In this document: piece by piece, positions 25,436 to 39,872 of the stretch
Layout of the letters: every line of letters starts with the position of its first letter
How positions within the stretch are numbered: position 1 is the stretch's first letter
Assembly (NCBI GenBank): GCA_017962605.1
Contig: JAGCUY010000007.1
Location: forward strand, 752-64,751
DNA from: Kiritimatiellia bacterium
Lineage (GTDB): Bacteria > Verrucomicrobiota > Kiritimatiellia > RFP12 > JAAYLN01
Direction: 5' to 3'
DNA length: 64,000 nucleotides
Program-made: the position numbers and the translations under genes
Notes under the pieces: generated by a model
Seen by the model: the letters and a program-made list of their open reading frames with translations, nothing else
What the model was told of the DNA's origin: nothing
The model's database searches: none

Positions 25436-26110
25436 ATGCACATAGGCCAATTTATAACGAGCCACAAGTTGCTGGTATTTGGCGGCGCGGCCATTGCCGG
25501 TGCTTGCGTGGCCATCGCAACAACGTTTGTTTTGCGGAGGCTGCGCAGAACACGTAAGCCGTCCATGCCGACCTTGCACTCGAAACGGGCAGCGCCAAAG
25601 CCGCTCGAAGCGACGAAAGGACACAAGCCGCCAGTCGCGTTGCCGGCGTCCAACTCGCACGAGCAGCCGGAGCCACAGACTAAACTGCCAGTTACTCCGC
25701 CGTGGCCGACTGCGCCAGCAGTAGGCGGTGGAATTTCGGACAACTGGGCGGAGTTCGTCCGCGACAGACTTGGTGAGCTCGATCCCACTTCATGCGCGGA
25801 CGAAACCAAGTGGGCGCTGGGCGTCGTTGATTTTCTCGATGAACTTAAAGAGGCGGAAGGTGAGGCGTCGCCTGAGGAGCGCAAAGCGTCAGCCACTCTA
25901 CGCACAGCGCTTCTGTCCAGTCTCGATTTCAGAAATTTCAAGCCTGTGGATTCCGATGAATGGAATCCAGAACGGCAACGCGCAGTCGCCGTGGTGCGCA
26001 AACCAGATGCGACGGGGACAAAGATTTTGGGCAAAGGCTCAACGGGACTTTCCCGCAACGGAAAAATCATCCGCAAGCAGGAAGTCAAAATCTCAACAAA
26101 AGGCAACTGA
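25436..26110 (+). CDS. Membrane-anchored hypothetical protein (N-terminal TM, Pro-rich linker, small C-terminal domain)
   Basis: ATG start. TM 'LLVFGGAAIAGACVAIATTFVL'. No recognised domain. It is the first gene of the island. Confidence 0.4.
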   Translation: MHIGQFITSHKLLVFGGAAIAGACVAIATTFVLRRLRRTRKPSMPTLHSKRAAPKPLEATKGHKPPVALPASNSHEQPEPQTKLPVTPPWPTAPAVGGGISDNWAEFVRDRLGELDPTSCADETKWALGVVDFLDELKEAEGEASPEERKASATLRTALLSSLDFRNFKPVDSDEWNPERQRAVAVVRKPDATGTKILGKGSTGLSRNGKIIRKQEVKISTKGN

Positions 26111-26112
26111 AC

Positions 26113-27042
26113 ATGGACTACGATCAATACGACGCGCCCGACATGGCGTTTGGCGCAAACCTCTACGACGACGCATCGCCGGACATCCTCGGCGTCCCCA
26201 ATGCCCAGGCGGACTTTTGGGACATGCAGGAGTTCGCGGACAACTGCGAACCAACTGCCGAAAGCTTCATCATTCGCCAGTTCGGCTATGACAATATCTC
26301 GACAAACGATTTCGCGTACATCTCGAACGCGAACGGATGGTATCAGCCCGGAGGCGGCACTAGCCCCGACGATATCGGCAACATGATGGATATGTTCGGC
26401 ATCGAAAACCACACTTACAGCAATGCCTCCATTGAAAATCTGGCAAGCGAGCTCATGGAAGGACACGGCGTGATTGTAGGCGTTCGCGCAGACCAGCTTT
26501 GGGAGCAGGGGCCGCTGCAGGAACTGTGGAACTGGCTCGCCGACATTTTCGGTTTCGATAATCCAATTGACCAACCGGCCGACCACGCCGTATGCGTGAC
26601 TGGGATAGACATGTCAGACCCTGACAATCCGATGGTCATTCTCAACGACCCTGGACATCCAAACGGGCAGGGCGCGTCCTATCCGCTCGACCGCTTCATG
26701 GACGCCTGGGAGAACAGCAACTTCGTCATGAACGCAACAAACGACCCGCTACCCGCCTTCACGGCGCAAAACGAGGCAATCCGCGACTCCATCTCGCAGT
26801 ATCTTGCCAACAATGACATCGCGCTTCCTTCACCAAATTATACCGTAGCATCTGAGCCAGCAGACATTGACCTGAATGGAATCGCGAATTCCGTCCACGA
26901 GTTTACCACCCCTGTGACTAACATACTGCAAGACATTGCAGGAATCATTGGAGCAATTGCCGGTGTCGTCGTGGCTGGCAATCTTCTTGACAAAGCCCTT
27001 GACGGTTTTTCAGGCGGTGATGACTTTGCCTACTCCCTCTAA
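26113..27042 (+). CDS. Peptidase_C39-like (papain-fold, BtrH/C39_2-type) domain protein with C-terminal glycine-zipper helix
   Basis: ATG at 26113 was confirmed. Cys motif 'NCEPTAESFIIRQFG' and His/Asp region 'DHAVCVTGID...NPMVILNDPGHPNG' are present. The C-terminus is 'IAGIIGAIAGVVVAGNLL'. Confidence 0.45.
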   Translation: MDYDQYDAPDMAFGANLYDDASPDILGVPNAQADFWDMQEFADNCEPTAESFIIRQFGYDNISTNDFAYISNANGWYQPGGGTSPDDIGNMMDMFGIENHTYSNASIENLASELMEGHGVIVGVRADQLWEQGPLQELWNWLADIFGFDNPIDQPADHAVCVTGIDMSDPDNPMVILNDPGHPNGQGASYPLDRFMDAWENSNFVMNATNDPLPAFTAQNEAIRDSISQYLANNDIALPSPNYTVASEPADIDLNGIANSVHEFTTPVTNILQDIAGIIGAIAGVVVAGNLLDKALDGFSGGDDFAYSL

Positions 27043-27072: not shown

Positions 27073-28941
27073 ATGAACACAAACAGCACCCCGACTCTCG
27101 AACAGTTTACCGATGGCGCCACCGCCGTCCTCGCGTTGGAAGCCGCTCTTACGGGCAAACCCGTCGATCCGGAATTAATCAAGAAAATCGCCATGTGGAA
27201 GATGGGCATCTTCCGCATAGTCGTAATGGGCGAGATCAAAAAGGGAAAGTCTTCCTTCATCAACGCCCTTCTTGGCCACAAGAACCTCGTGCCAGTCTGT
27301 TCGGACGTGGCGACATCGACAATCTTCAAGATTTGCTACGGCGAAAAAGTCGGCTACAAGGTCTATTTCTTCCAGGACAGCGGCAAGGCTCCAGTCGCAA
27401 TCCAGGCGGATGAACTCCCCGCATACGGCACAGAGGACGGCAATCCCGGCAACGAGAAGCAAGTTGATTTCATACAAGTCTTCTGCCCGTCGCCGCTTTT
27501 GAAAGCTGGTCTTGTGATTGTCGATACCCCAGGACTTGGAGGACTCTTCAAGCAGCACAAGCGCATTACCTACCAATACGTTCCCAAAGCCGACGCCGTC
27601 TTCCTTGTCACCGACAGCGTTGAGTCTCCAATCGGACAGGCGGAAATTGATCTCCTTGGCGACCTCAAGAAGGTGACAAAGCACATCTTCTTCGTGCAGA
27701 CGAAATCGCGACTTGTCGATGCGGATGCCCGCGAAGCCCGCAAGGAGAACAATATTCGTACCCTCGCGGAACAGGCAGGGTTCGAGAAGGACAAGATCAG
27801 GTATTTCGTTGTGGATTCGGCGACCAAATTCGCCGCCGACGAGGAACATGACTTGAAGAAGCTAGACCGCAGCGGCTTCGGCGAAGTGGCGCGTTTCGTG
27901 AACGGCTACATTCGCCCGAATGTCCACCGGCTCATCATGGCCCGCGCCATGGCGGAAATGCGTCCGAAAATCGACGCCGTATCGCGCGAACTCGACGCCC
28001 AGGCCGCAATCCTAAAGACAAAAAACGAGGAGGAACGTCAGGCCGCTATCAACGAACTGACGCGGGAACAGGAGCAGCTCAAGGCATGGGACTCTACGGA
28101 AAAGCGGGTCGTCTTGGCCATGCTTGAGGATGGCCTTGTCGAAGTCCGCGAGAAAGCGCTTGATACGATAGGCGCGTATAGGCCCAATGGGGCATTCCAT
28201 CAGGAAGTCTCTGCGACTCTCGCTAATCTTGATTCGGCAACGCAAATCGAGGATGCGCTGACAATTATCCAGCAGAACCTCTCCGATACCCTTTCTCAGG
28301 TTCTCTACGACACCGAGAAGGAAATGTCGCAGGGATGCGTGAAACTGCTTTCAGAAATCAGCCGGAAAATCGGCAAGTCTGTGGAACAAGGCGTCCTTCA
28401 GTCCGACTCGAACATTAGCGTTCCGATTTCGGGAGTTCCCGTGGAGATTAATAAATCGACGATGTTTGAGTCTTTGCGAAACGGATGGTTTGGAGGAACG
28501 TTCGGGGCGGCAATTGGTGGAGCCATCGGTAGTATTGTTCCGGTTGTTGGAACGACTGTTGGCGCATGGGTTGGCGCTTTTGTCGGCGGTGCGCTCAGCG
28601 GACTGTCATCAAACAAGCACGAAATGATTGCCGCTCGCAATCAGGCAGGTGCGGTCTTTGGCGGATGGCTTGCCAACGCATACGCCGAGATGTCGCAGAA
28701 AATCGGCTCGGCGCTAGACCAGATCAAGCGCAACGTCACGCGCGGCGTCACGGAAGCGGTGACTTCCGTCATCAAGGAGAAGGCCGACCATATCGCTGAA
28801 CTCAAGCAGATGGGGCAGAAGAGCAGCGAAGAAATAAAGGCGAAGATGGCGGAACTTCAGAAGCGCCAGCAGCAGTTCAAGCAAGCCGTCAACGACATGC
28901 AGGGCGGCGGTGCGGCAGCTGCAGCCGCCAAGGGAGCGTAG
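27073..28941 (+). CDS. Bacterial dynamin-like protein (BDLP/DynA-family large GTPase), copy 1
   Basis: G1 'GEIKKGKSSFINALLG', G3 'VIVDTPGLG', and long helical C-terminal stalk/paddle regions. Confidence 0.7.
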   Translation: MNTNSTPTLEQFTDGATAVLALEAALTGKPVDPELIKKIAMWKMGIFRIVVMGEIKKGKSSFINALLGHKNLVPVCSDVATSTIFKICYGEKVGYKVYFFQDSGKAPVAIQADELPAYGTEDGNPGNEKQVDFIQVFCPSPLLKAGLVIVDTPGLGGLFKQHKRITYQYVPKADAVFLVTDSVESPIGQAEIDLLGDLKKVTKHIFFVQTKSRLVDADAREARKENNIRTLAEQAGFEKDKIRYFVVDSATKFAADEEHDLKKLDRSGFGEVARFVNGYIRPNVHRLIMARAMAEMRPKIDAVSRELDAQAAILKTKNEEERQAAINELTREQEQLKAWDSTEKRVVLAMLEDGLVEVREKALDTIGAYRPNGAFHQEVSATLANLDSATQIEDALTIIQQNLSDTLSQVLYDTEKEMSQGCVKLLSEISRKIGKSVEQGVLQSDSNISVPISGVPVEINKSTMFESLRNGWFGGTFGAAIGGAIGSIVPVVGTTVGAWVGAFVGGALSGLSSNKHEMIAARNQAGAVFGGWLANAYAEMSQKIGSALDQIKRNVTRGVTEAVTSVIKEKADHIAELKQMGQKSSEEIKAKMAELQKRQQQFKQAVNDMQGGGAAAAAAKGA

Positions 28942-28944
28942 CAA

Positions 28945-30555
28945 ATGGGCGATGCGCCATCGGGAATAGGCCGCAAGTTGCAGGAGTCGTTCCGTGACTT
29001 CCTGCACGAGTCGGCGGAGATGTTCGGGGAATACGGGTTCCTCGGCGACTGCGAACGACAGCTTCGTGAACTGGAAGCTGGCATCGTCCGGCCCTTCAAC
29101 ATCGCGGTATTCGGACGCATGAAGACCGGCAAGAGTTCGCTCATCAACGCCCTGCTTGGTCGCGACCTCGCCATCACCGGCGTTGAGGAGACGACGGCGA
29201 CAGTAAACGTCATCTCGCATTCGGATGACCCCGCTATGCGCGGCAAATTCACCGTCCACTGGAAAGACCGTCCGCCTGAAACGTTCCTGCTTGACCGCCT
29301 CACCGTAGACTGGTCAGGCAAATCGAGGGAGGTCGTTGAGAAGGTCGCGAACACGGCCTATCTTCAACTCTACTCGGACGACCCCGCCCTAGCCCTCCAC
29401 GAAATCATTGACACGCCAGGAACAGGTGCGGCGGTCTCTGACCATGAGAAAGTCGCCCAGGCCTTCCTTGATCCGTCCGTGCAGGAGGGGCGCAAGGCCG
29501 ACGCGCTTGTCTATGTCTTTGGCATAAACGGGCGCGAGACCGACGAGGCGAATCTCAAGACATTCCGCGAGGGATGCCTACCCGGATCAAGGCCATACAA
29601 CAGCGTCGGCGTTCTTCACAAATGGGATGCCACCTATTGGAACTCCGGCGGAGACTGGGCGGAAATCCAATCGAAGGCCGAACGCCTAAAAGGGCAGATG
29701 GCTTCCGTCGTGGCGGATGTCATCCCAGTCAGCGCACCAATCGCCATGGCCGCCGCGCGGGCGACCGACGACGACCTCGCGACGGTCATTGCGCTAATCG
29801 GCAATAAGGGCGGCGAGTCCGTGGAGTCGCTGCTACAGGACGATGAAGACTGGAACGACGATGCGGACTGCCTGGCCTTGCGAAAACGTTTCACAATCCC
29901 TTGGATTTGCTTCCGGGTCTGTGTCCGCGAAGCCATCAAACTTGGCGATGGTGCGATGCCGGAGACACTACGCGCCCGTCTCCGCGAACTAGGCGGCATT
30001 GATCGTCTCCGCTCGTTCCTCGACCGGAACTTCTTCAAATCCGCCGCGCTCATCCGGCAGCGCCAGCAATATGCACGATTCCTCCGCGTCAAGGACGAGG
30101 CATACGCCCGCATACAAGACCGTCAGGAGGAACTGGAAACGGACGCCAAAAACTGGGATGCCCTATTTGAGCGGTCGATTGAACCAAGGTCTATTGCTTC
30201 CTGGGTCGAGCGAAAGCGCTTCCATGCAAAATCGGAACTGGAGACGCTCGTTCGGAAATGGACGGATCAGGACGGCCGATACCTCAACAGCGGCATCCCG
30301 AAGATCCTCGACGACCTCAACGCGCTGGACTGGTGCGCCGCCCATCCCGAACGCATATCCGAGACGGAGCTTGCGGCTCTTAATACGATGGCCGATCGCC
30401 TCGCCGGCGATGAAGCTGCCGCTTTGGACGCGGACATGCTCCGCGCCGTAAAAAAGCGCTTTTCGTCGCTCCGGCTCGGAACGCTGGACGCCGCAGGGCG
30501 CAAACTCGCCGATTATCTTTCACGCCGCATTGACGCCGCACTCCGCCTGAAATAA
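28945..30555 (+). CDS. Bacterial dynamin-like protein, copy 2 (paired with copy 1)
   Basis: G1 'GRMKTGKSSLINALLG' and G3 'IIDTPGTGA'. A 3-nt gap separates it from copy 1, the typical tandem BDLP arrangement. Confidence 0.7.
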   Translation: MGDAPSGIGRKLQESFRDFLHESAEMFGEYGFLGDCERQLRELEAGIVRPFNIAVFGRMKTGKSSLINALLGRDLAITGVEETTATVNVISHSDDPAMRGKFTVHWKDRPPETFLLDRLTVDWSGKSREVVEKVANTAYLQLYSDDPALALHEIIDTPGTGAAVSDHEKVAQAFLDPSVQEGRKADALVYVFGINGRETDEANLKTFREGCLPGSRPYNSVGVLHKWDATYWNSGGDWAEIQSKAERLKGQMASVVADVIPVSAPIAMAAARATDDDLATVIALIGNKGGESVESLLQDDEDWNDDADCLALRKRFTIPWICFRVCVREAIKLGDGAMPETLRARLRELGGIDRLRSFLDRNFFKSAALIRQRQQYARFLRVKDEAYARIQDRQEELETDAKNWDALFERSIEPRSIASWVERKRFHAKSELETLVRKWTDQDGRYLNSGIPKILDDLNALDWCAAHPERISETELAALNTMADRLAGDEAAALDADMLRAVKKRFSSLRLGTLDAAGRKLADYLSRRIDAALRLK

Positions 30556-30567
30556 AGGATCACGACA

Positions 30568-32718
30568 ATGACAAACGCAATTGGAATCGACTTTGGAACA
30601 TCAAGGACTATGGTGTCCTATCTGGATTCATCCACGGGCAGGGTGGAATTAGTGACTTTTGGGTGTGATAGGTTCGTGCCCACGACCGTTCACATTGATG
30701 AAAAAGGGCAATATCTTTTCGGTAAAGATGCGGACGAACTGATTGCCACCGATCCCGAAGGCTACTGCCGAGCCTTCAAATTGCATCTTGCGGAGAGTGA
30801 TCCTATATTGCCTCGCGCGGGGGCTACGGCTGAGGATTTGGCGAAGCGTTTTCTTGGCCATATAAAGGAGGAGTGCGAACAGAACGTTTTCCACGGTGAA
30901 CCAATCGGCATGGCGACCATTACGGTTCCGGTATCGTTCTCTCCCGCTCGCAAGGCGGCCTTGAAGCGGGCTGCGGAGGCGGCGGGATTCGCCAAGGTGT
31001 CGTTTCTGCCGGAACCCGAAGCCGCCGGCATAGCCTTTCTGCGCGACAACCCAACGGACAAGTTCTCTCGCGCGCTCGTTCTTGATTGGGGCGGCGGAAC
31101 GCTTGACATAGCGATTATTTCGCGGGATGAAGACGGAACCATCCATGCTGACAGCCATTGCGCCGAGGGGCGTGATGATGTGGGCGGAGAGGAAATGGAC
31201 AGACGGCTCCTTGAAGACATCTCTGCAAAGTGGAAGACCGCTTTTCGGAAACAGCTTTTAAACGATGAGCTGGATGGTGTCCGTTTTTTGCGCAAGTCGC
31301 AAGAAACAAAGGAGAAATTGTCGCAAAAGAGCACGGCTCCCTTCTGGGGCATTCCGCCACAAAAAATAGATGTCACACGGGAGCGATTCAGTCAGCTCAT
31401 CGACGAAATGCTTGATTCCGCCGTCGATTTGATCAAGTCGGCGCTTGCGAAAAACAAAAAACGAGGGAATCCTGCCCCAGACGCCATCCTCCTAATCGGC
31501 GGCACGAGCCAGGTGCCAGCTGTCCGCGAGGCGATGGAGACGAACTTTCCTCAACTCCGTGTTCTTTCCTGGCATCATTCTCACGAGGCCGTCGCCTTGG
31601 GGGCGACAGTGGTAGATGCGGCGGCGAATCCTCAAAAGAACATGCATTCTACTGAAAAGAACACGAATCGAAATCACAAAACTTCTCCAAGGAAGAATAG
31701 AGGTCATTTTGATGTCGTTTGTCCACATTGCGGAAGCATCGAAGATGTGACTGGCAAAGGCCGTTGGAAGTGTGATAATTGCGGCAAACCCTTTGATGTA
31801 GATTCCCGTTCTCATGTTTCAATACCAAAAGAAGAGGAAGGGCCGCAAGCCGACTATTCTGGCAAATGCTTTGAAGAAGCGTTATCCCGCGCAGGTGAAT
31901 TGGCGGAAAATAATGAGTTGAGAAAACTGAAAAAATGCGACGCCGACATTATTGCGAAAGCCGCAGAGAACGGCAATATTCGTGCTGCTGCCATTCTTGG
32001 CCGCCTCTATTCAGAAGGATCTCGTGGCTACCAGGTGGACAACGGGTTGGCGATAAACTGGATGACAATAGCGGCAAATGCGGGTGATAATGACAGTCAG
32101 GCAATTCTTGCTTTGTGGTCTCTTGGTGGCGAAAACAGCCCTGCGCAGAAGAATCGTTCAAATGCACTTAAATGGTCCGAAATGGCTTATGATGGGAATA
32201 GAAGCCTAAAAAACCAAGCGATTCTATTGATTGTTCTGTCGTCTTTTGAAGATCCGGACAAGACACGCATAAGGCGTATAGGCCAAAACATAGATGGCAA
32301 AGTTGCCGATAAAGCCCCGGAAGAATTTTCAACAGCGGAACAAGTACTTCTCGGCATCGTTTATTCTTCTCGAGCTGTTCTGGCTATGAAGTCTGGTAAC
32401 TATGAAAAGGCTCGCCAATTCCTGCAAAAGGGTGCTGACTTTGGAAATCAAGAATCCGTTGACGCTTTGGCGGAATTGGATAGTGAAGCAAACGAAGAGG
32501 AAAATGCCTCAGAAATAACAGATAAACGTACAAATCTGGAAAAAGAAGTAAATCGAAAACCTAAAAAAAACTCTTATACTGATCCCAATGATGCGGCATT
32601 AAGCGGTGCCGCAATTGGAGCCGTCATCGGGACTATCATCCCAGGCGCTGGAACTCTTGCTGGAGCAGGAATCGGTGCAATAGCCGGAAGGCTCAAGGCA
32701 TGGTGGGACAATTTGTGA
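30568..32718 (+). CDS. Hsp70/DnaK-type nucleotide-binding-domain ATPase fused to zinc ribbon, Sel1/TPR-like repeats and a C-terminal glycine-zipper membrane helix
   Basis: Phosphate-1 'IGIDFGTSRTMVSY', phosphate-2 'LVLDWGGGTLDIAIIS' and adenosine 'ILLIGGTSQVPAVRE' are present. Zinc ribbon is 'CPHCGS...CDNCGKPF'. Sel1-like 'AAILGRLYSEGSRGYQVDNGLAINWM'. C-terminal 'GAAIGAVIGTIIPGAGTLAGAGIGAIAG'. There is no Hsp70 substrate-binding domain. Confidence 0.65.
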   Translation: MTNAIGIDFGTSRTMVSYLDSSTGRVELVTFGCDRFVPTTVHIDEKGQYLFGKDADELIATDPEGYCRAFKLHLAESDPILPRAGATAEDLAKRFLGHIKEECEQNVFHGEPIGMATITVPVSFSPARKAALKRAAEAAGFAKVSFLPEPEAAGIAFLRDNPTDKFSRALVLDWGGGTLDIAIISRDEDGTIHADSHCAEGRDDVGGEEMDRRLLEDISAKWKTAFRKQLLNDELDGVRFLRKSQETKEKLSQKSTAPFWGIPPQKIDVTRERFSQLIDEMLDSAVDLIKSALAKNKKRGNPAPDAILLIGGTSQVPAVREAMETNFPQLRVLSWHHSHEAVALGATVVDAAANPQKNMHSTEKNTNRNHKTSPRKNRGHFDVVCPHCGSIEDVTGKGRWKCDNCGKPFDVDSRSHVSIPKEEEGPQADYSGKCFEEALSRAGELAENNELRKLKKCDADIIAKAAENGNIRAAAILGRLYSEGSRGYQVDNGLAINWMTIAANAGDNDSQAILALWSLGGENSPAQKNRSNALKWSEMAYDGNRSLKNQAILLIVLSSFEDPDKTRIRRIGQNIDGKVADKAPEEFSTAEQVLLGIVYSSRAVLAMKSGNYEKARQFLQKGADFGNQESVDALAELDSEANEEENASEITDKRTNLEKEVNRKPKKNSYTDPNDAALSGAAIGAVIGTIIPGAGTLAGAGIGAIAGRLKAWWDNL

Positions 32719-32754
32719 CATCGCAAGCACATTACGTTCAGGTTGAATAATAAG

Positions 32755-35340
32755 ATGAATAATTCTATCGGCATCGACTTCGGCACCACCAAGACGATGG
32801 TGTCGTATTTGAATCCCGTCACCGGCAGGGCGGAACTCGTCGTTTTGGATAAAAATCGCGACCGGCCTTCCATCCCTACGACTATTCATCAGGATGAAGC
32901 AGGGCAAGTCGTTTTTGGTGAAGAGGCCGATGACCAATTAGCCTATGATCCCGAAGGCTATTGCCGCGCCTTCAAACTTCATCTGGGGGAAAACGACCCC
33001 GTGTTGACTCGGACGGGGGCTACGGCGGAGGCACTGACGGAGCGCTTTCTTGAACATATCAAAGAGGAATGCGAACTGAACGTCTTCCACGGAGAGTCGA
33101 TAGACACGGCGACCATCACGGTGCCGGTGCTGTTCTCTCCTTCGCGAAAGGCGTCGTTGAAGCGTGCCGCGGAGGCGGCCGGATTCTCCTCGGTTTCGTT
33201 TCTGCCCGAGCCGGAAGCCGCTGGAACGGCGTTCCTGCGCGACAATCCGGCAGACAAGTTCTCACGGGCGCTTGTCCTCGACTGGGGTGGCGGCACACTC
33301 GACATCGCCATCATTTCCCGGAACGAAGATGGGGCTATCCATGCGGACCGCCATTGCGCGGAAGGACGCGATGACGTAGGCGGAGAGGAGATGGACAGAC
33401 TATTGCTTGGCGCGGGAAATGAATTGTGGCGCGCTACATTCGGGTTGCCCTTGATTGAGTCCGAGGAAAACGAGCCGAAGCTCTTGCGTGAGGCGGAGAA
33501 AGTAAAGATTGGCCTTTCCCGCAAGGATACGGCTACTTTTAGGCGCGTGACGAGGAAAGTCGATGTCTCACGGGCGCAGTTCAAGCAACTTATTGCGGAA
33601 ATGCTCGATTCTGCAGTCGAACTTGTCCAGTCTTCGCTTGCGAAGAACAAGAATCAGGGCAATCCCGCGCCAGACGCCATCCTTTTGATTGGCGGCACTT
33701 GCCAGATTCCAGCCGTCCGCGAGGCAATGGAGACAAACTTTCCTGAACTCCGTGTCCTGTCATGGCATCATTCGCACGAGGCTGTGGCGCTGGGAGCTAT
33801 AGGAACTACCACGGCAAATATCCATTCTGGCGTCAACTTCAAATTCCAAGCCAAATACGATTGGCTCAAAAGAGAGAGGGTGCCAACTCTAGGAGGCGCA
33901 ATTGAATCCGGCATCTACCAGACTCCAGATGGAGGCTGGCAGTGCAACTACGACGGAGATTGGGGGTATGGTTGCGCGATAACGCTTCGTCCCGGCGAAG
34001 CCGAACCCTATGAAGTCCACGGTGAGATCTGCAAACGGTGGTATTGGGAAGGCGGTGCCTTTGACGAAAACGGCAGACGAGGCTGGTTGGGCTATCCTAT
34101 CTCCGACGAAGAGGCCTTTGAAGGCGACGGCGATCCCGCCGATCGCATTTCGCACTTCGAGAACGGGGACATCGTATGGTCGGAGAAAACGAAAGAGACC
34201 CGCATCGTCAACATCAAGGATCTAGCAAAGTGGCGCAACTTCAAATTCCAAGCCAAATATGATTGGCTCAAGAGAGAGAGGGTGCCAACTCTTGGGAGCG
34301 CAATTGAACCCGGCATCTACCAAACTCCAGATGGAGGCTGGCAGTGCAACTACGACGGAGAATGGGGGTATGGTTGCGCGATAACGCTCCGTCCCGGCGA
34401 CGCCGAACCCCATGAAGTCCACGGTGAGATCTGCAAACGGTGGTATCGGGAAGGCGGTGCCTTTGACGAAACCGGCAGGCGGGGCAGGTTGGGCTATCCT
34501 ATCTCCGACGAGGAGGCCTTTGACGGCGACGGCGATCCCGCCGACCGCATTTCGCACTTTGAGAACGGAGACATCGTATGGTCGGAGAAAACGAAAGAGG
34601 CCCGCGTTGTCAACATCAAGGATCTGGCAAAGTGGCGCAACTTCAAATTCCAAGCCAAATACGATTGGCTCAAGAGAGAGAGGGTGCCAACTCTTGGGGG
34701 CGCAATTGAACCCGGCATCTACCAAACTCCAGATGGAGGCTGGCAGTGCAACTACGACGGAGAATGGGGGTATGGTTGCGCGATAACGCTTCGTCCCGGC
34801 GATGCCGAACCACATGAAGTCCACGGTGAGATCTGCAAACGGTGGTATCGGGAAGGCGGTGCCTTTGACGAAACCGGCAGGCGGGGCTGGTTGGGCTATC
34901 CTATCTCCGACGAGGAGGCCTTTGAAGGCGACGGCGATCCCGCCGACCGCATTGCGCACTTCGAGAACGGAGACATCGTATGGTCGGAGAAAACGAAAGA
35001 GACCCGCATCGTCAACGTGTTGACGGATGAAGCTTTGCGCCTATTTGCCGGATTATCCCAAGTAGATGGCGCCTTAAACCAAACGGAAGTTGATTTCATG
35101 GAGAAATGGTATCCCGGTTCCACTACCAAGTCGGCGTGGAACGAAAAATTGCTGTACTCCGACGAAACAATAGAAGCATTAGCCGACAATGCCGCAACAT
35201 CATACAATTGCAACAAACAAGTATTGTCGGCGTTGATGCAGCATCTATGCGAATTCGTTTTATGCGACGGCCTCATGAATTCAAGCGAGAATGCTGCGCT
35301 CTCGTGGATCAACTATTTCTTCTTTACCAAGTATCAATAA
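32755..35340 (+). CDS. Hsp70/DnaK-type NBD ATPase fused to three tandem LGFP-like repeat modules
   Basis: 'IGIDFGTTKTMVSY', 'LVLDWGGGTLDIAIIS' and 'ILLIGGTCQIPAVRE' are present. Then come 3 x ~134-aa repeats containing 'GWLGYPISDEEAFEGDGDPADRISHFENGDIVWSEKTKE'. Start is ATG at 32755 (TTG at 32743 is also possible). Confidence 0.65.
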   Translation: MNNSIGIDFGTTKTMVSYLNPVTGRAELVVLDKNRDRPSIPTTIHQDEAGQVVFGEEADDQLAYDPEGYCRAFKLHLGENDPVLTRTGATAEALTERFLEHIKEECELNVFHGESIDTATITVPVLFSPSRKASLKRAAEAAGFSSVSFLPEPEAAGTAFLRDNPADKFSRALVLDWGGGTLDIAIISRNEDGAIHADRHCAEGRDDVGGEEMDRLLLGAGNELWRATFGLPLIESEENEPKLLREAEKVKIGLSRKDTATFRRVTRKVDVSRAQFKQLIAEMLDSAVELVQSSLAKNKNQGNPAPDAILLIGGTCQIPAVREAMETNFPELRVLSWHHSHEAVALGAIGTTTANIHSGVNFKFQAKYDWLKRERVPTLGGAIESGIYQTPDGGWQCNYDGDWGYGCAITLRPGEAEPYEVHGEICKRWYWEGGAFDENGRRGWLGYPISDEEAFEGDGDPADRISHFENGDIVWSEKTKETRIVNIKDLAKWRNFKFQAKYDWLKRERVPTLGSAIEPGIYQTPDGGWQCNYDGEWGYGCAITLRPGDAEPHEVHGEICKRWYREGGAFDETGRRGRLGYPISDEEAFDGDGDPADRISHFENGDIVWSEKTKEARVVNIKDLAKWRNFKFQAKYDWLKRERVPTLGGAIEPGIYQTPDGGWQCNYDGEWGYGCAITLRPGDAEPHEVHGEICKRWYREGGAFDETGRRGWLGYPISDEEAFEGDGDPADRIAHFENGDIVWSEKTKETRIVNVLTDEALRLFAGLSQVDGALNQTEVDFMEKWYPGSTTKSAWNEKLLYSDETIEALADNAATSYNCNKQVLSALMQHLCEFVLCDGLMNSSENAALSWINYFFFTKYQ
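33835..35013 (+). repeat. Near-identical 402-bp tandem repeat x ~2.9 inside the Hsp70-NBD gene
   Basis: Units start at 33835, 34237 and 34639 ('aacttcaaattccaagccaaata(c/t)gattggctcaa...'), with only a few substitutions between copies. Confidence 0.85.
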
Positions 35341-35425: not shown

Positions 35426-36592
35426 ATGGGACACACAACCGAACCAACTGGCGAGAAGCCGCCTGTTGAGCAATGGCTCGCAAACACTGGAAAGCATTCT
35501 GCGGAATGGACTTTCCGATCTGTCAAGAACTTCTTCAAATTTGAACACCCAACCGAAACAGAGGTTTCACGATTCGGAAGTGCCGCAGCCACTTTTGAGT
35601 TTTCCCGATTGTTTCCGCTTGCCGTCGTTTGCCTTGGCTTCGGATGGATTGGATCATGGATATGCTCTGTCTGCGATTTGGATGTAGAATCCGATTCCAG
35701 ATGGGCGATATGGCCAATCGCCTTTCTTGCCCTATATGGTGTTATTAGAGCTCTGAAGCATTTCCTGCGGCCAAAGAGCATCGAATGGTGGCCAAATGCG
35801 CTGATCTGTGCATTTACTGCCACAATAGGGTTGCTAACCCTTTTCCTCTTTCAGAGCCTGGCTGACGTAATGGCGGATATTGACGCAAGGCGCGGTTTTG
35901 TGGCATTGGTAAAAATGATTGGGCAATGCTATCGAGCAGTTGACGATCCCGAAGCTGGTCTTTCTGAGAAGTTCATAGGCTATATTGGAGGAGTCGGTCT
36001 TTGTGAGGAATCCGTGAAGATTCTCCCAGTTTGCCTCCTGATGGTCAACAGGAAAAAACTGCCGTTCAGACTTGAATTGTCTTTCCGGTCATTTTTGACA
36101 TTGGCATTCTTCTCCGGACTTGGTTTTGGCATCGGGGAGGCGCTATATAGCTATGCCATTCCTGAAAATGGCGATTTGGATGCCCAATTGTCACGGTGGT
36201 TCGCCTGCGTCCCCTCGCATGCGATCTATACAATGATCGATGCCGCCTTCCTTTGGCTACTGCAACCGCAAATCCAAAGAGCCGCAGACCCCAGAATAAA
36301 AGTAGGTTGGTTTGTCCTTTGCGTGGCAACAGTCGCTGTCTTGCATGGGATCTACGATGTCCTTTGCGTAATTCCATTTGTGGGCGTGCTCCTTGATGCG
36401 GCTTCGTTGGTGCTACTTTGGTGGGCGGTGCGGTTTTCCATTCGGCGCCGCTCCTCGGTTGACGGTTCGGATTCTTCGGGCCTAGAGGACTTCAACGCCA
36501 TGACTTTCAATACTTTTGGCAAATTTTTTGCCAAGACATATCTCATCATTCTCGTCGGCATTATCCTTTATGCCAAGTTCTGGTGTCTTTGA
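35426..36592 (+). CDS. PrsW-family intramembrane metalloprotease (anti-sigma-factor site-1 protease-like)
   Basis: RBS 'ggagga' plus ATG at 35426. Multi-TM. PrsW signature motifs 'CEESVKIL' (EExxK), 'GFGIGEALYSY' (FGxxE) and 'HGIYDVL' (HxxxD). Confidence 0.6.
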   Translation: MGHTTEPTGEKPPVEQWLANTGKHSAEWTFRSVKNFFKFEHPTETEVSRFGSAAATFEFSRLFPLAVVCLGFGWIGSWICSVCDLDVESDSRWAIWPIAFLALYGVIRALKHFLRPKSIEWWPNALICAFTATIGLLTLFLFQSLADVMADIDARRGFVALVKMIGQCYRAVDDPEAGLSEKFIGYIGGVGLCEESVKILPVCLLMVNRKKLPFRLELSFRSFLTLAFFSGLGFGIGEALYSYAIPENGDLDAQLSRWFACVPSHAIYTMIDAAFLWLLQPQIQRAADPRIKVGWFVLCVATVAVLHGIYDVLCVIPFVGVLLDAASLVLLWWAVRFSIRRRSSVDGSDSSGLEDFNAMTFNTFGKFFAKTYLIILVGIILYAKFWCL

Positions 36593-36604
36593 GGAGTATT
36601 CATC

Positions 36605-37381
36605 ATGAAGTTCATCTGTCCGCATTGCAATCAGCATTTGGAGAGTGAAGAGGATGTTGCAGGAATTGGCGTTGAATGCCCCAACTGCGGCAAAACGTTT
36701 GTCGCGGCATCCTCTGGCGCGGAAACCATGCTGGGGGAAGCTCCACAAGAGCGAACGTCTGAAGGCGAACTCGACGCTGCCAATGACTTTCTTGAACGCG
36801 CGATTGGAAACATTCTGCATGCAATCTGGGGCATAATTAGCAGAATCGGCCATGTGATTAAATGGCTTGCAATGCGCCTGTATGATGTTGTCAACTGGTT
36901 ATTCAGAATGCTAATCGACATTGTGAAGTTCTTCTTCACAATCCGTTTCCTGAAGCTTCTGGTTTTGCTGGTAGTTCTTGCGGTCGTATGCGCCGTCTTT
37001 GCGGGTATAATCGCTGCGCCGTTCTTCCTTTTGATTTGGTTCGCTCAGGGGACGCCTTGGGGCACGATGAAGAGTCTGATGGGCATGCCTTTCGTCGACG
37101 CGACCAGAGTTGTTGGGCGGACGGTGTATGCATGGCTCTGCGGAGAAGGGGTCAAACATGGTCTTTACAATGCGGCATGGATTGTTGAGGGAGTTTGGTT
37201 GGTATTGTTTGCAGGTTGGGGTGCCTGGAAGGGCGTTAAGAGCTACAAGCGCGGTGTGATTGCGCGCTGGCGTGAACGTCGAAGGATTCGTAAGGCTGAA
37301 CGCCGTGCGGAAAAGGAAGCCAGACGGGCAGCAAAAGAAGCAGCAAGGCAGGGCGAGGCCCAGCCACTCGCTATTCGCTAG
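36605..37381 (+). CDS. Zinc-ribbon membrane protein (hypothetical)
   Basis: N-terminal 'CPHCNQ...CPNCGK' ribbon, several TM helices, and a C-terminal Arg/Lys/Glu-rich tail. RBS 'gaggag' is present. Confidence 0.4.
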   Translation: MKFICPHCNQHLESEEDVAGIGVECPNCGKTFVAASSGAETMLGEAPQERTSEGELDAANDFLERAIGNILHAIWGIISRIGHVIKWLAMRLYDVVNWLFRMLIDIVKFFFTIRFLKLLVLLVVLAVVCAVFAGIIAAPFFLLIWFAQGTPWGTMKSLMGMPFVDATRVVGRTVYAWLCGEGVKHGLYNAAWIVEGVWLVLFAGWGAWKGVKSYKRGVIARWRERRRIRKAERRAEKEARRAAKEAARQGEAQPLAIR

Positions 37382-37419: not shown

Positions 37420-38499
37420 ATGGGCACGATACTTGGAGACATGTTCAAGAAGGTCGGGGGTGGCCTTGGAAAAGGCTTTGCGTCATGGCTTGGGCAAATC
37501 TCGACGTGGATTGCGCTTTTAGTCGCAACAGTACTGGCTGTCGCATCTCTGGTTGGCGGCATCTTCTGGATCCCGACAAAAACGCTGGGCGTCCTGATCG
37601 CTGGCATCGGGTGTTTAGCTTCCGGCATTCTCTTTGCCCTCTGTCTGCGAAAGAGCGGAGTATTTGGCTCAAAGGATGCGGAAACCCGTGCTGCATTGCA
37701 GAAGGAAATCGAAAAACTCCGCTGCGAAAAGGATGCCCGCATCGCCGCGTTGGAGGCCGACAACGAACGTCTAAAGCACCAGCGCATCGACGTCAATTCG
37801 TTCGCGCCCATCCTCAAGCTGGGACTTGCCGAGGCTGACATGTCAGTTCGTGATGTGAAAATCGAATGGATGGACGATTTCAAGCCAGGAAACATGTTGA
37901 CGAATGTGATTGGCTACCCCGCGCGCAGCAAATACGTTGGTGTCATTCAACGGTCGTTCAAGGCCGTTTATGGCGTCGATTTGATGAAACTCAAGATTTG
38001 CGAGGATAACGACTGTCTTCGCATAGCCGGTATCGTGCCGGAGAACATCGGCATCAAGGATGACGAAACGCGCTGGCTTCTGCGTCAGACGCAGACTTTC
38101 CGGTTGAAGGGAACTCCTCTGACGCGCGGCGATGGCATCCCGCAGCAATGCGCCATAGGCGACGGCTGGGGCGATGGCGAGAAATTCTGGCAAATCGACA
38201 AGGAAGCGCCGTTCGAGGGCAGTCTCGATCTCAACAAGACTGCGGAAATGGCGAGTGCGCAGGAGCACGAGCTTGGCGAACGCATCAACCGAAGCCAGGG
38301 CGCCGAGTTTAGGATGATGAATGGCTACATCCAGCAAATGGCGCAAGGGTTTGTCAGACTCCTCCTCGCTCCCGCCCACAAGCCTGTGGTCTTCGTACAG
38401 ACTCCGCTTGCCGAAATCGCCGACTCTCCAGCATGGCTCTCTCTGGAAGACTTCGCTGCCGGATTCAACAATAAGTTGCTGGCGGAAAACAAACCATGA
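37420..38499 (+). CDS. Membrane protein with coiled-coil segment and DUF4230-like C-terminal domain (hypothetical)
   Basis: Two N-terminal TM helices, a coiled coil 'ALQKEIEKLRCEKDARIAALEADNERLK', and a region resembling DUF4230 ('VIQRSFKAVYGVDLMKLKI...'). Confidence 0.35.
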   Translation: MGTILGDMFKKVGGGLGKGFASWLGQISTWIALLVATVLAVASLVGGIFWIPTKTLGVLIAGIGCLASGILFALCLRKSGVFGSKDAETRAALQKEIEKLRCEKDARIAALEADNERLKHQRIDVNSFAPILKLGLAEADMSVRDVKIEWMDDFKPGNMLTNVIGYPARSKYVGVIQRSFKAVYGVDLMKLKICEDNDCLRIAGIVPENIGIKDDETRWLLRQTQTFRLKGTPLTRGDGIPQQCAIGDGWGDGEKFWQIDKEAPFEGSLDLNKTAEMASAQEHELGERINRSQGAEFRMMNGYIQQMAQGFVRLLLAPAHKPVVFVQTPLAEIADSPAWLSLEDFAAGFNNKLLAENKP

Positions 38500-39134
38500 C
38501 CAAAACAAGAACGAAGAAGTCCGCCAAGGGTGGGGCCATGAAGCCTTCCCTGCGAGACCGCATCTACACCTCCTTCGAGCAGATGACGGATGCGTACAAC
38601 GAAGTGCGTGATGACCTGATCGCGCTGGGCATTCTTTGGAGGGGCTCGAAGCTCGACAAGGTGGAGTGCTACTATGAATCCATCGCCCCCATTGCCGCTC
38701 TCAAGGGGGGGATGGGGTATTTCAGTTTCAAGGACCACGACATCCATTTTCCCTCCTTATATCTGCCTTTCGGCTGGCTGACCGGCAGCGTTGGCGAAAA
38801 AGATTCTGCATCAAACGTGATCCGCCACGAGTTCGGCCACGCGCTCGCCGATCAGTACCCAGCGGCGCTGAAAAAGGGCGGGCTTTTCCGCGAGGCGTTT
38901 GGAGGAGTCTATTCCGACAAGCCTGCGCCCGACATCGATCCCGACAACTGGGAGTTCGATTGCGTCTCCCCCTACGCCGCAACCGAAACCCGCGAGGACT
39001 TCGCGGAGACTTTCATGCTTTTCCTGAAGCACAAGGGGAAGTTGCCGAAAAAGTTCGCTAATAAACCAGCCATCGCGAAGAAATGGGCCGCTGTGGCTGA
39101 AATCATAAAGCGCGTTCGTGCATTAGAAAACTGA
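38496..39134 (+). CDS. HExxH zinc metallopeptidase-like protein
   Basis: 'IRHEFGHALAD' (HExxH) with a downstream Glu in 'REDFAETF'. Its start overlaps the previous stop (ATGA). Confidence 0.5.
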   Translation: MTKTRTKKSAKGGAMKPSLRDRIYTSFEQMTDAYNEVRDDLIALGILWRGSKLDKVECYYESIAPIAALKGGMGYFSFKDHDIHFPSLYLPFGWLTGSVGEKDSASNVIRHEFGHALADQYPAALKKGGLFREAFGGVYSDKPAPDIDPDNWEFDCVSPYAATETREDFAETFMLFLKHKGKLPKKFANKPAIAKKWAAVAEIIKRVRALEN

Positions 39135-39161: not shown

Positions 39162-39872
39162 ATGAATAAAACAACAACGAAGAAAAATGCGCCAAAGGCG
39201 CGTAGGGAAACTGAAACCGTAGTCTGCCCACATTGCGATACGGAGTGCCTTGTGTCGGAAAACGGACGCTATGAGTGTCCAAATTGCACAGGACAGTTCG
39301 ATGTAGACTGGTTTGACACGCCGCATGTCCACCAGCCCGACTTGCAGACATGCGGCTGGGCGACGACAAAGTGGCTTCTGTCCGCATTTGGGTGTGAGAT
39401 GCCATCAAACAAGCAACTCGAACGGGAACTGCATGTCCGCAAAGGTCGCGATGGTCTTTCGGGCGCACTTCTCAAGGCTTACAACTACTTTATCGAAGCT
39501 TTCGGCAAGAAGTGGAACTGGCAAAAGATCGACTCTCAGGACATTTCTGGAACTTTGCCCACCGACCTTGTCGCGACACTCAATCGACATGGACTCAAGC
39601 CTGTATTTCCTGGAATCCGCGAACTGCTCCGCTATTCCGACTATAAGAACTACATGAAAGAAGTGTTCGCCCAGCAAGGCCGTTTTGCGCTCTTCTATGT
39701 TAACACGACCCGCGATGGGTCTTATGCACATTGGATCGGGATTGAGAAGTTCAAGAACAGGGTCCGCGTGATGGATCCCATGGACTATGACTACTCGCCG
39801 TTTTCAAAGCACGAAGCCATCCGCAGCAAGCGAATTCGCGCATGCTGCATGATTGGGTTCGTGAGGGCGTAG
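39162..39872 (+). CDS. Zinc-ribbon + Peptidase_C39-like (papain-fold) domain protein
   Basis: 'CPHCDTEC...CPNC' ribbon. C39-type 'QPDLQTCGWATTKWLLSAFG' (Gln/Cys) and 'SYAHWIGIEKF...VMDPMD' (His/Asp). RBS 'aggaga' is present. Confidence 0.5.
   Translation: MNKTTTKKNAPKARRETETVVCPHCDTECLVSENGRYECPNCTGQFDVDWFDTPHVHQPDLQTCGWATTKWLLSAFGCEMPSNKQLERELHVRKGRDGLSGALLKAYNYFIEAFGKKWNWQKIDSQDISGTLPTDLVATLNRHGLKPVFPGIRELLRYSDYKNYMKEVFAQQGRFALFYVNTTRDGSYAHWIGIEKFKNRVRVMDPMDYDYSPFSKHEAIRSKRIRACCMIGFVRA

Follow-up and report, generated by a model that had tools for sequence, protein, structure and literature searches.

What is the function of two adjacent genes that encode the nucleotide-binding domain (NBD) of Hsp70 but carry dissimilar C termini, neither of which resembles the other half of a chaperone? 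The pair lies on a 64,000-nucleotide stretch of DNA, hereafter the window. Both open reading frames are present as tandem paralogs and are organized as follows.

30568–32718, + strand: Hsp70-NBD protein A, 716 aa (Pfam, NCBIfam, DnaK alignment, AF2)
30568–31617, + strand: A, NBD, residues 1–350
31714–31800, + strand: A, Zn ribbon, residues 383–411
31861–32517, + strand: A, Sel1-type solenoid, residues 432–650
32599–32694, + strand: A, Gly-zipper tail, residues 678–709
32755–35340, + strand: Hsp70-NBD protein B (Pfam, AF2, alignments)
32755–33807, + strand: B, NBD
33835–34236, 34237–34638, and 34639–35040, + strand: B, three 134-aa LGFP units
35041–35337, + strand: B, TerB-like module

Protein A is identical to P0036 of our family set and is named “MAG: Hsp70 family protein [Kiritimatiellae bacterium]” at NCBI. 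The reading frame of protein B comprises 865 aa from a TTG at 32743 or 861 aa (P0001) from the ATG at 32755, which is the likelier start.

The NBDs of proteins A and B share 63% identity over ∼355 aa and are unrelated beyond it, as the first-pass annotation of this DNA had proposed. Both match Pfam HSP70 (E 8e-34 for A and 7e-33 for B), and the matches stop at profile position ∼378 of 599; that of protein A spans positions 109–378 only. Similarly, residues 1–348 of protein A align to positions 1–369 of 625 of the NCBIfam DnaK profile. The NBD signatures named in the first-pass annotation are retained: when aligned to DnaK, both NBDs keep Asp-8, Lys-71, Glu-149, the D173-GGGT-D180 stretch, and Gly-311 and Gly-312, and these catalytic residues are invariant in 24 family members. 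Foldseek superposes the domain on NBD-only chains with a TM score of ∼0.75, and the top structural matches are all Hsp70 NBDs.

The canonical substrate-binding domain (SBD) is missing. The hydrophobic interdomain linker, the β-sandwich SBD, and the helical lid were not found in either protein by HMM coverage, AF2 modeling, or Foldseek. The possibility that the C-terminal halves are diverged SBDs, which would have spoken for a chaperone, was ruled out by Pfam and NCBIfam, the AF2 models, and the structural matches. Canonical Hsp70 chaperones were rejected as an assignment as well, based on the absent SBD and linker, on scores of 110–120 bits against the NCBIfam equivalogs DnaK, HscA, and HscC (cut-offs 620–1019), and on the replacement of DnaK residues Arg-167, Asn-170, and Thr-173, through which the NBD contacts the J-domain, by Ser-145, Pro-148, and Glu-151. 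Proteins A and B are also not NBD-only Hsp70s of the YegD type, because they score 64.6 and 74.8 bits with NCBIfam NF008673, far under its cut-off of 331. Neither protein was matched by any PADLOC model.

Secondary Pfam and NCBIfam matches of the NBDs to MreB_Mbl (E 4e-15 and 6e-11), MamK, FtsA, and EutJ raise the idea of actin- or MreB-like filaments, in which the NBDs would polymerize into a membrane cytoskeleton that scaffolds neighboring proteins, here a pair of dynamins. We regard this as very unlikely, because Hsp70 scores exceed these matches by ∼60 bits, the Hsp70-specific catalytic Lys-71 is invariant, all best structural matches are Hsp70 NBDs, and the locus encodes a GrpE-type partner (see below), which is specific to Hsp70.

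The tail of protein A contains the three elements previously ascribed to it, namely a Zn ribbon, Sel1 repeats, and a glycine zipper. The AF2 model places a disordered stretch after the NBD, followed by the Zn ribbon, modeled as β-hairpins (pLDDT 82–89), and by a paired-helix α/α-solenoid at residues 432–650 (pLDDT above 90). Pfam Sel1 reaches 32.8 bits on the tail alone and 28.9 bits on the whole protein (cut-off 30.7). The Zn ribbon (CPHC...CDNC, residues 383–407; E 5e-4 to 1e-3) and the Gly zipper (residues 678–709; E 0.003) are sub-threshold in Pfam; the latter tail recurs among many homologs, in which an SWGAGTGA motif lies upstream of the zipper.

In protein B, the LGFP assignment stands (Pfam PF08310, E 1.4e-27, 96 bits, cut-off 22), whereas the three repeats described in the first-pass annotation are in fact three 134-aa units with two Pfam LGFP motifs each. 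They are encoded by a 402-bp tandem repeat of 3.0 copies and 95% identity (33828–35016). A search of PDB sequences with the C-terminal half of protein B gave no significant match. By structure, the top match of the LGFP units is the LGFP domain of Corynebacterium glutamicum mycoloyltransferase A (MytA), which establishes the LGFP fold. The LGFP domain of MytA binds the cell wall. Three cysteines and one histidine are nearly invariant in the alignment of units of the protein B type; we know of no such residues in classical LGFP repeats. LGFP is also not the whole tail: protein B ends in a ∼100-aa helical TerB-like module, which the first-pass annotation missed. Pfam TerB matches the window copy at E 0.02–0.03 (PF05099, 15.5 bits, cut-off 24.4; AF2 confidence is low in this part) and 7 of 15 family copies of the module, with a best E of 3.4e-5.

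The LGFP unit of protein B occurs elsewhere (47–58% identity when aligned, at most 85% in the best local match) in direct fusion to dynamins and to TIR/FGE-sulfatase proteins, the latter in toxin- or TIR-rich loci. The dynamin fusions provide a Rosetta-stone link between dynamins and what appears to be a sensor-type module. They also bear on the suggestion that these modules target the cell surface or peptidoglycan. Proteins A and B would then be exported and anchored to the wall by LGFP and Sel1 modules, as the MytA match might imply. However, both proteins open with an ATP-dependent NBD and lack a signal peptide, so that the Sel1 and LGFP modules must act in the cytoplasm, and the LGFP unit is joined to dynamin and TIR domains that are themselves cytoplasmic. 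Surface targeting is thus not upheld, and we consider an exported form scarcely credible; judged by its sequence, protein A would be tail-anchored at most.

The genes preceding protein A suggest a different setting, and four of them form a unit with the NBD genes.

25436–26110, + strand: GrpE-like protein, 224 aa, first gene of the conserved unit (profile, hhalign, Pfam)
26113–27042, + strand: papain-fold cysteine peptidase (Peptidase_C39_2) with a Gly/Ala-rich hydrophobic C-terminal tail (Pfam)
27073–28941, + strand: dynamin-like GTPase 1 (DLP1), 622 aa, with a Gly-zipper-like hydrophobic segment at residues 472–510
28945–30555, + strand: dynamin-like GTPase 2 (DLP2), 536 aa, without a hydrophobic segment

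The two dynamins that adjoin the NBD genes, already recognized in the first-pass annotation, match Dynamin_N at E 7e-19 (DLP1) and 1.2e-16 (DLP2). Their closest solved structures are IniA (PDB code 6j72, 9e-20) and BDLP (2j68) for DLP1, and C. jejuni DLP2 (5owv_C) for DLP2. The PADLOC models LeoBC (E 1.7e-26) and LeoA (5e-24), for which no cut-offs are given, cover DLP1 over nearly its full length, and the Leo models cover DLP2 only around the P-loop (residues 34–90). The G1, G2, G3, and G4 motifs of DLP1 are kept across 33 orthologs, and the GRMKxGKS, TAT, DTPGTG, and HKWD motifs of DLP2 across 34.

The GrpE-like protein and the peptidase had not been noticed before as conserved partners. The N-terminal half of the GrpE-like protein consists of a hydrophobic helix and a low-complexity region. 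The GrpE-like domain, presumed soluble, takes up residues ∼95–224. A profile of 22 orthologs finds E. coli GrpE (1DKG_A; E 9e-4, residues 90–196), in the four-helix-bundle and β-domain part that touches the Hsp70 NBD, and Mycobacterium tuberculosis GrpE (E 0.031), and hhalign aligns the family with GrpE at 85% probability (E 6e-6). Among 142 representatives of the family, 28 match Pfam GrpE (best 2.7e-10), which is the only recurrent family; taken by itself, the window copy stays under the threshold (E 0.03–0.12). The gene thus probably encodes a remote GrpE homolog, for which nucleotide exchange activity is predicted. Homologs are encoded in ∼30 dynamin-linked loci (32 matching reading frames, including that of the window and duplicate loci), and in one case (P0202) the GrpE-like domain is fused to C39_2. 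The peptidase itself scores 32.2 bits with Pfam C39_2 (cut-off 24). Its mechanical reading frame opens at 25960, and ATG 26113 is the likely start. The glutamine, the cysteine (DNC), the histidine (ADHAV), and an ND motif are kept in at least 90% of 28 orthologs, and homologs are present in 34 loci.

In an NBD-seeded genome scan that was blind to dynamins, 34 of the 43 informative loci showed the gene order GrpE-like, C39_2, DLP1, DLP2, NBD (one to four genes). With C-terminal halves that are not SBDs and a dynamin linkage conserved to this extent, an ATP-driven, non-chaperone role, as proposed in the first-pass annotation, is the better reading; the further label “sensor or effector” goes beyond these data and is interpretation. 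We think that there is about an even chance that the NBDs act as nucleotide-gated adaptor or sensor subunits of a dynamin-pair membrane system, rather than as chaperones, in the surveillance of invaders or envelope damage, that is, in defense.

A role closer to chaperones would be that of Hsp110-like co-chaperones, in which the SBD-less NBDs bind DnaK NBD-to-NBD and either exchange its nucleotide or target it to membranes or tail ligands. The same role has been proposed for NBD-only “DnaK derivates” (PMC13580251), protein B has a TerB-like end, and the LGFP-bearing loci L006 and L008 include TerB-DnaJ (DjlA-like) genes. However, no gene for DnaK or a J-domain protein was found in the conserved unit, the invariable partners there are dynamins and a peptidase, and the GrpE-like factor of the operon would be superfluous if the NBD itself exchanged nucleotides. 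We therefore judge this role quite improbable.

The operon is found almost exclusively in Kiritimatiellae, Akkermansia, other Verrucomicrobiota, and Lentisphaerae. When it encodes several NBD proteins, each has a different tail, drawn from Sel1, ankyrin, LGFP, coiled-coil, and TerB-like modules, and about one third of the family tails terminate in an anchor, either a Gly zipper or a transmembrane segment (17 of 60 and 35 of 99 tails have hydrophobic or Gly-zipper segments). Such segments also occur in the GrpE-like protein, the C39_2 peptidase, DLP1, and protein A. The tails of the window copy have no match in its closest relatives, and between L049 and L053 the dynamins are 88–92% identical, yet the NBD tails have been exchanged. 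The tails turn over much faster than the core. The swappable tail cassettes of this PVC-restricted family are likewise an addition to the first-pass annotation. Conservation of genes ends with the five-part core, and the flanks differ at every locus. Nine informative loci, and several genomes with at least 10 NBD copies, carry “orphan” NBD-tail genes that lie amid housekeeping genes, with no gene for a dynamin, a GrpE-like protein, or a peptidase in the vicinity; hence, the NBD family can be encoded away from dynamins.

The window copy of the operon lies in an island of low GC content (0.52 versus 0.63) with an AbiEi-domain gene upstream; no tRNA marking an island border was found in the window. 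The operon is bracketed by an inverted-repeat element, which was absent from all 90 of 90 related loci and is therefore not part of the system. The flanks of other loci match the PADLOC models AbiLi, AriA, HEC-02, and PDC, although these are raw matches without a background rate, and several of the models are generic (kinases and ABC-type ATPases). An origin from phages was rejected, because IMG/VR holds only distant Hsp70-like genes (24–33% identity).

Taken as a whole, the locus may be a self-contained, horizontally mobile, and membrane-associated multi-NTPase system confined almost entirely to PVC bacteria, with proteins A and B as its variable subunits, a description that we hold to be as likely right as wrong. 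The dynamins could instead serve housekeeping membrane remodeling in PVC bacteria, such as vesicle release, division, or maintenance, with the NBD-tail proteins as cargo or site adaptors and no part in conflict. In favor of this reading, the paired dynamins IniA/IniC and LeoABC are described as releasing vesicles and splitting membranes, and IniA has the solved structure closest to DLP1; tails of the ankyrin, Sel1, and TPR types are classic adaptors; and the orphan genes sit among housekeeping genes. Against this stand the flanking genes that differ at every locus, the low-GC island of the window copy, the exchange of tails between near-identical operons, and the scarcity of the GrpE-like marker family, whose mere 142 clusters among 1.84 billion representatives indicate a rare system and not a lineage-wide core function. 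On balance, we find housekeeping rather unlikely.

For the dynamin-pair surveillance system, we infer the following course of events. The Hsp70 NBD would serve as a nucleotide-gated adaptor or switch that cycles between ADP and ATP, with the dedicated GrpE-like factor resetting this cycle. The tails would engage a ligand, either cytoplasmic or at the inner membrane face, with an invader protein or an envelope-damage signal as candidates. The loaded NBD might then recruit or license the dynamin pair, which, like DynA, IniA/IniC, and LeoABC, would remodel or seal the cytoplasmic membrane, and the C39_2 peptidase might process a component of the system. In its most specific form, that of an Hsp70 cycle stripped of its chaperone half and reused as the nucleotide switch by which a machine for immunity or membrane surveillance reads exchangeable sensor tails and controls the dynamin pair, this proposal is tentative, and we lean somewhat against it.

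Two dissimilar, adjacent dynamin-like GTPases, one of them with a membrane-inserting segment, are a feature shared with the Eleos (LeoA/LeoBC) defense system, Bacillus subtilis DynA, M. tuberculosis IniA/IniC, and C. jejuni DLP1/DLP2. In contrast to the locus described here, none of these has been described with Hsp70-NBD, GrpE-like, or C39_2 partners. Closer in composition are the DO-GTPase/GAP1 conflict systems (Kaur, Burroughs, Iyer, and Aravind 2020; PMC7159879), whose GAP1-N2 theme combines Hsp70, GrpE, and an NBD-only Hsp70 with two paralogous TRAFAC GTPases. Zn ribbons, membrane-proximal parts, peptidases, and highly variable repeat modules are common to both, as is the grammar of a constant core plus a variable module. 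However, the GTPases here are bona fide dynamins, a term absent from the text of PMC7159879, whereas those of the conflict systems belong to the DO-GTPase family; GAP1, FNIII, DnaJ, and full-length Hsp70 are lacking here; and the phyletic range is PVC instead of actinobacteria and firmicutes. GAP1, GASH, and FNIII gave no match in the operon proteins at E ≤ 0.01. Membership in the DO-GTPase/GAP1 systems was rejected, since the GTPases match Dynamin_N and GAP1 is absent.

Similar to proteins A and B, the SBD-less DnaK derivatives reviewed in PMC13580251 (E. coli YegD and the Myxococcus “derivates”) combine a conserved NBD with added uncharacterized domains and lack linker and SBD. The present clade differs in its fixed operon context and dedicated exchange factor, neither of which is reported there. 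Hsp70-family domains are also encoded beside a GTPase in CoCoNuT CnuD and Hsp70-McrB fusions (PMC11090510) and joined to a protease in the DnaK-like-EACC1 fusions (PMC12642450), with anti-phage activity predicted or shown. Those Hsp70s keep the SBD as an NBD/SBD unit, and the ATPase motifs of CoCoNuT are often degenerate, whereas proteins of the present family lack the SBD and have invariant motifs. Unlike the C-terminal LGFP domain of mycoloyltransferase A/PS1 from C. glutamicum (PDB codes 6sx4 and 6swz), the LGFP module described here resides in the cytoplasm, joined to an ATPase, a GTPase, or a TIR domain. A link between YegD and the E. coli dynamin RdcA was discarded, because the RdcA paper names neither YegD nor Hsp70.

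Literature searches that paired dynamin and Hsp70 with operons, GrpE, LGFP, TerB, PrsW, and defense or conflict systems did not return the combination, and the five-part Hsp70-NBD/GrpE-like/C39_2/dynamin system is apparently undescribed. SBD-less DnaK derivatives were called “dark matter” in a 2026 review (PMC13580251), and one clade of them now has fixed partners. Their role, and the targeting and regulation of dynamins, including in phage defense, thereby become testable with defined genes. Swappable adaptor or sensor subunits encoded beside bacterial dynamins bear on how these are targeted, and Verrucomicrobiota from gut and rumen, among them relatives of Akkermansia, carry the system. A role in defense would mean a new NTPase logic for prokaryotic immunity. 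If the Hsp70 NBD indeed works as an immune switch, it would take the part of STAND or AAA+ NTPases in an unrecognized class of conflict systems and provide the first concrete function for SBD-less DnaK derivatives as well as the first dedicated regulator of bacterial dynamins.

Downstream of protein B, the window contains five accessory genes.

35426–36592, + strand: PrsW-family membrane protease (Pfam PrsW-protease, E 4e-14)
36605–37381, + strand: Zn-ribbon protein with several hydrophobic helices, also in L010
37420–38499, + strand: membrane/coiled-coil protein, 359 aa, in the window only
38496–39134, + strand: HExxH metallopeptidase (Peptidase_Mx; Pfam E 2.5e-6), in 4 loci
39162–39872, + strand: Zn ribbon and possible papain/C39-like domain (QTCGW...HW), also in L002

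The PrsW gene has no homolog in the related loci and is found in the window only. The 37420–38499 protein shows a weak match to the C terminus of LeoBC (E 0.004). The peptidase assignment of the last protein (Pfam Peptidase_C39, E 0.24) is tentative, and its sequence is matched by the Zn ribbon of protein A at 3e-6 in phmmer.

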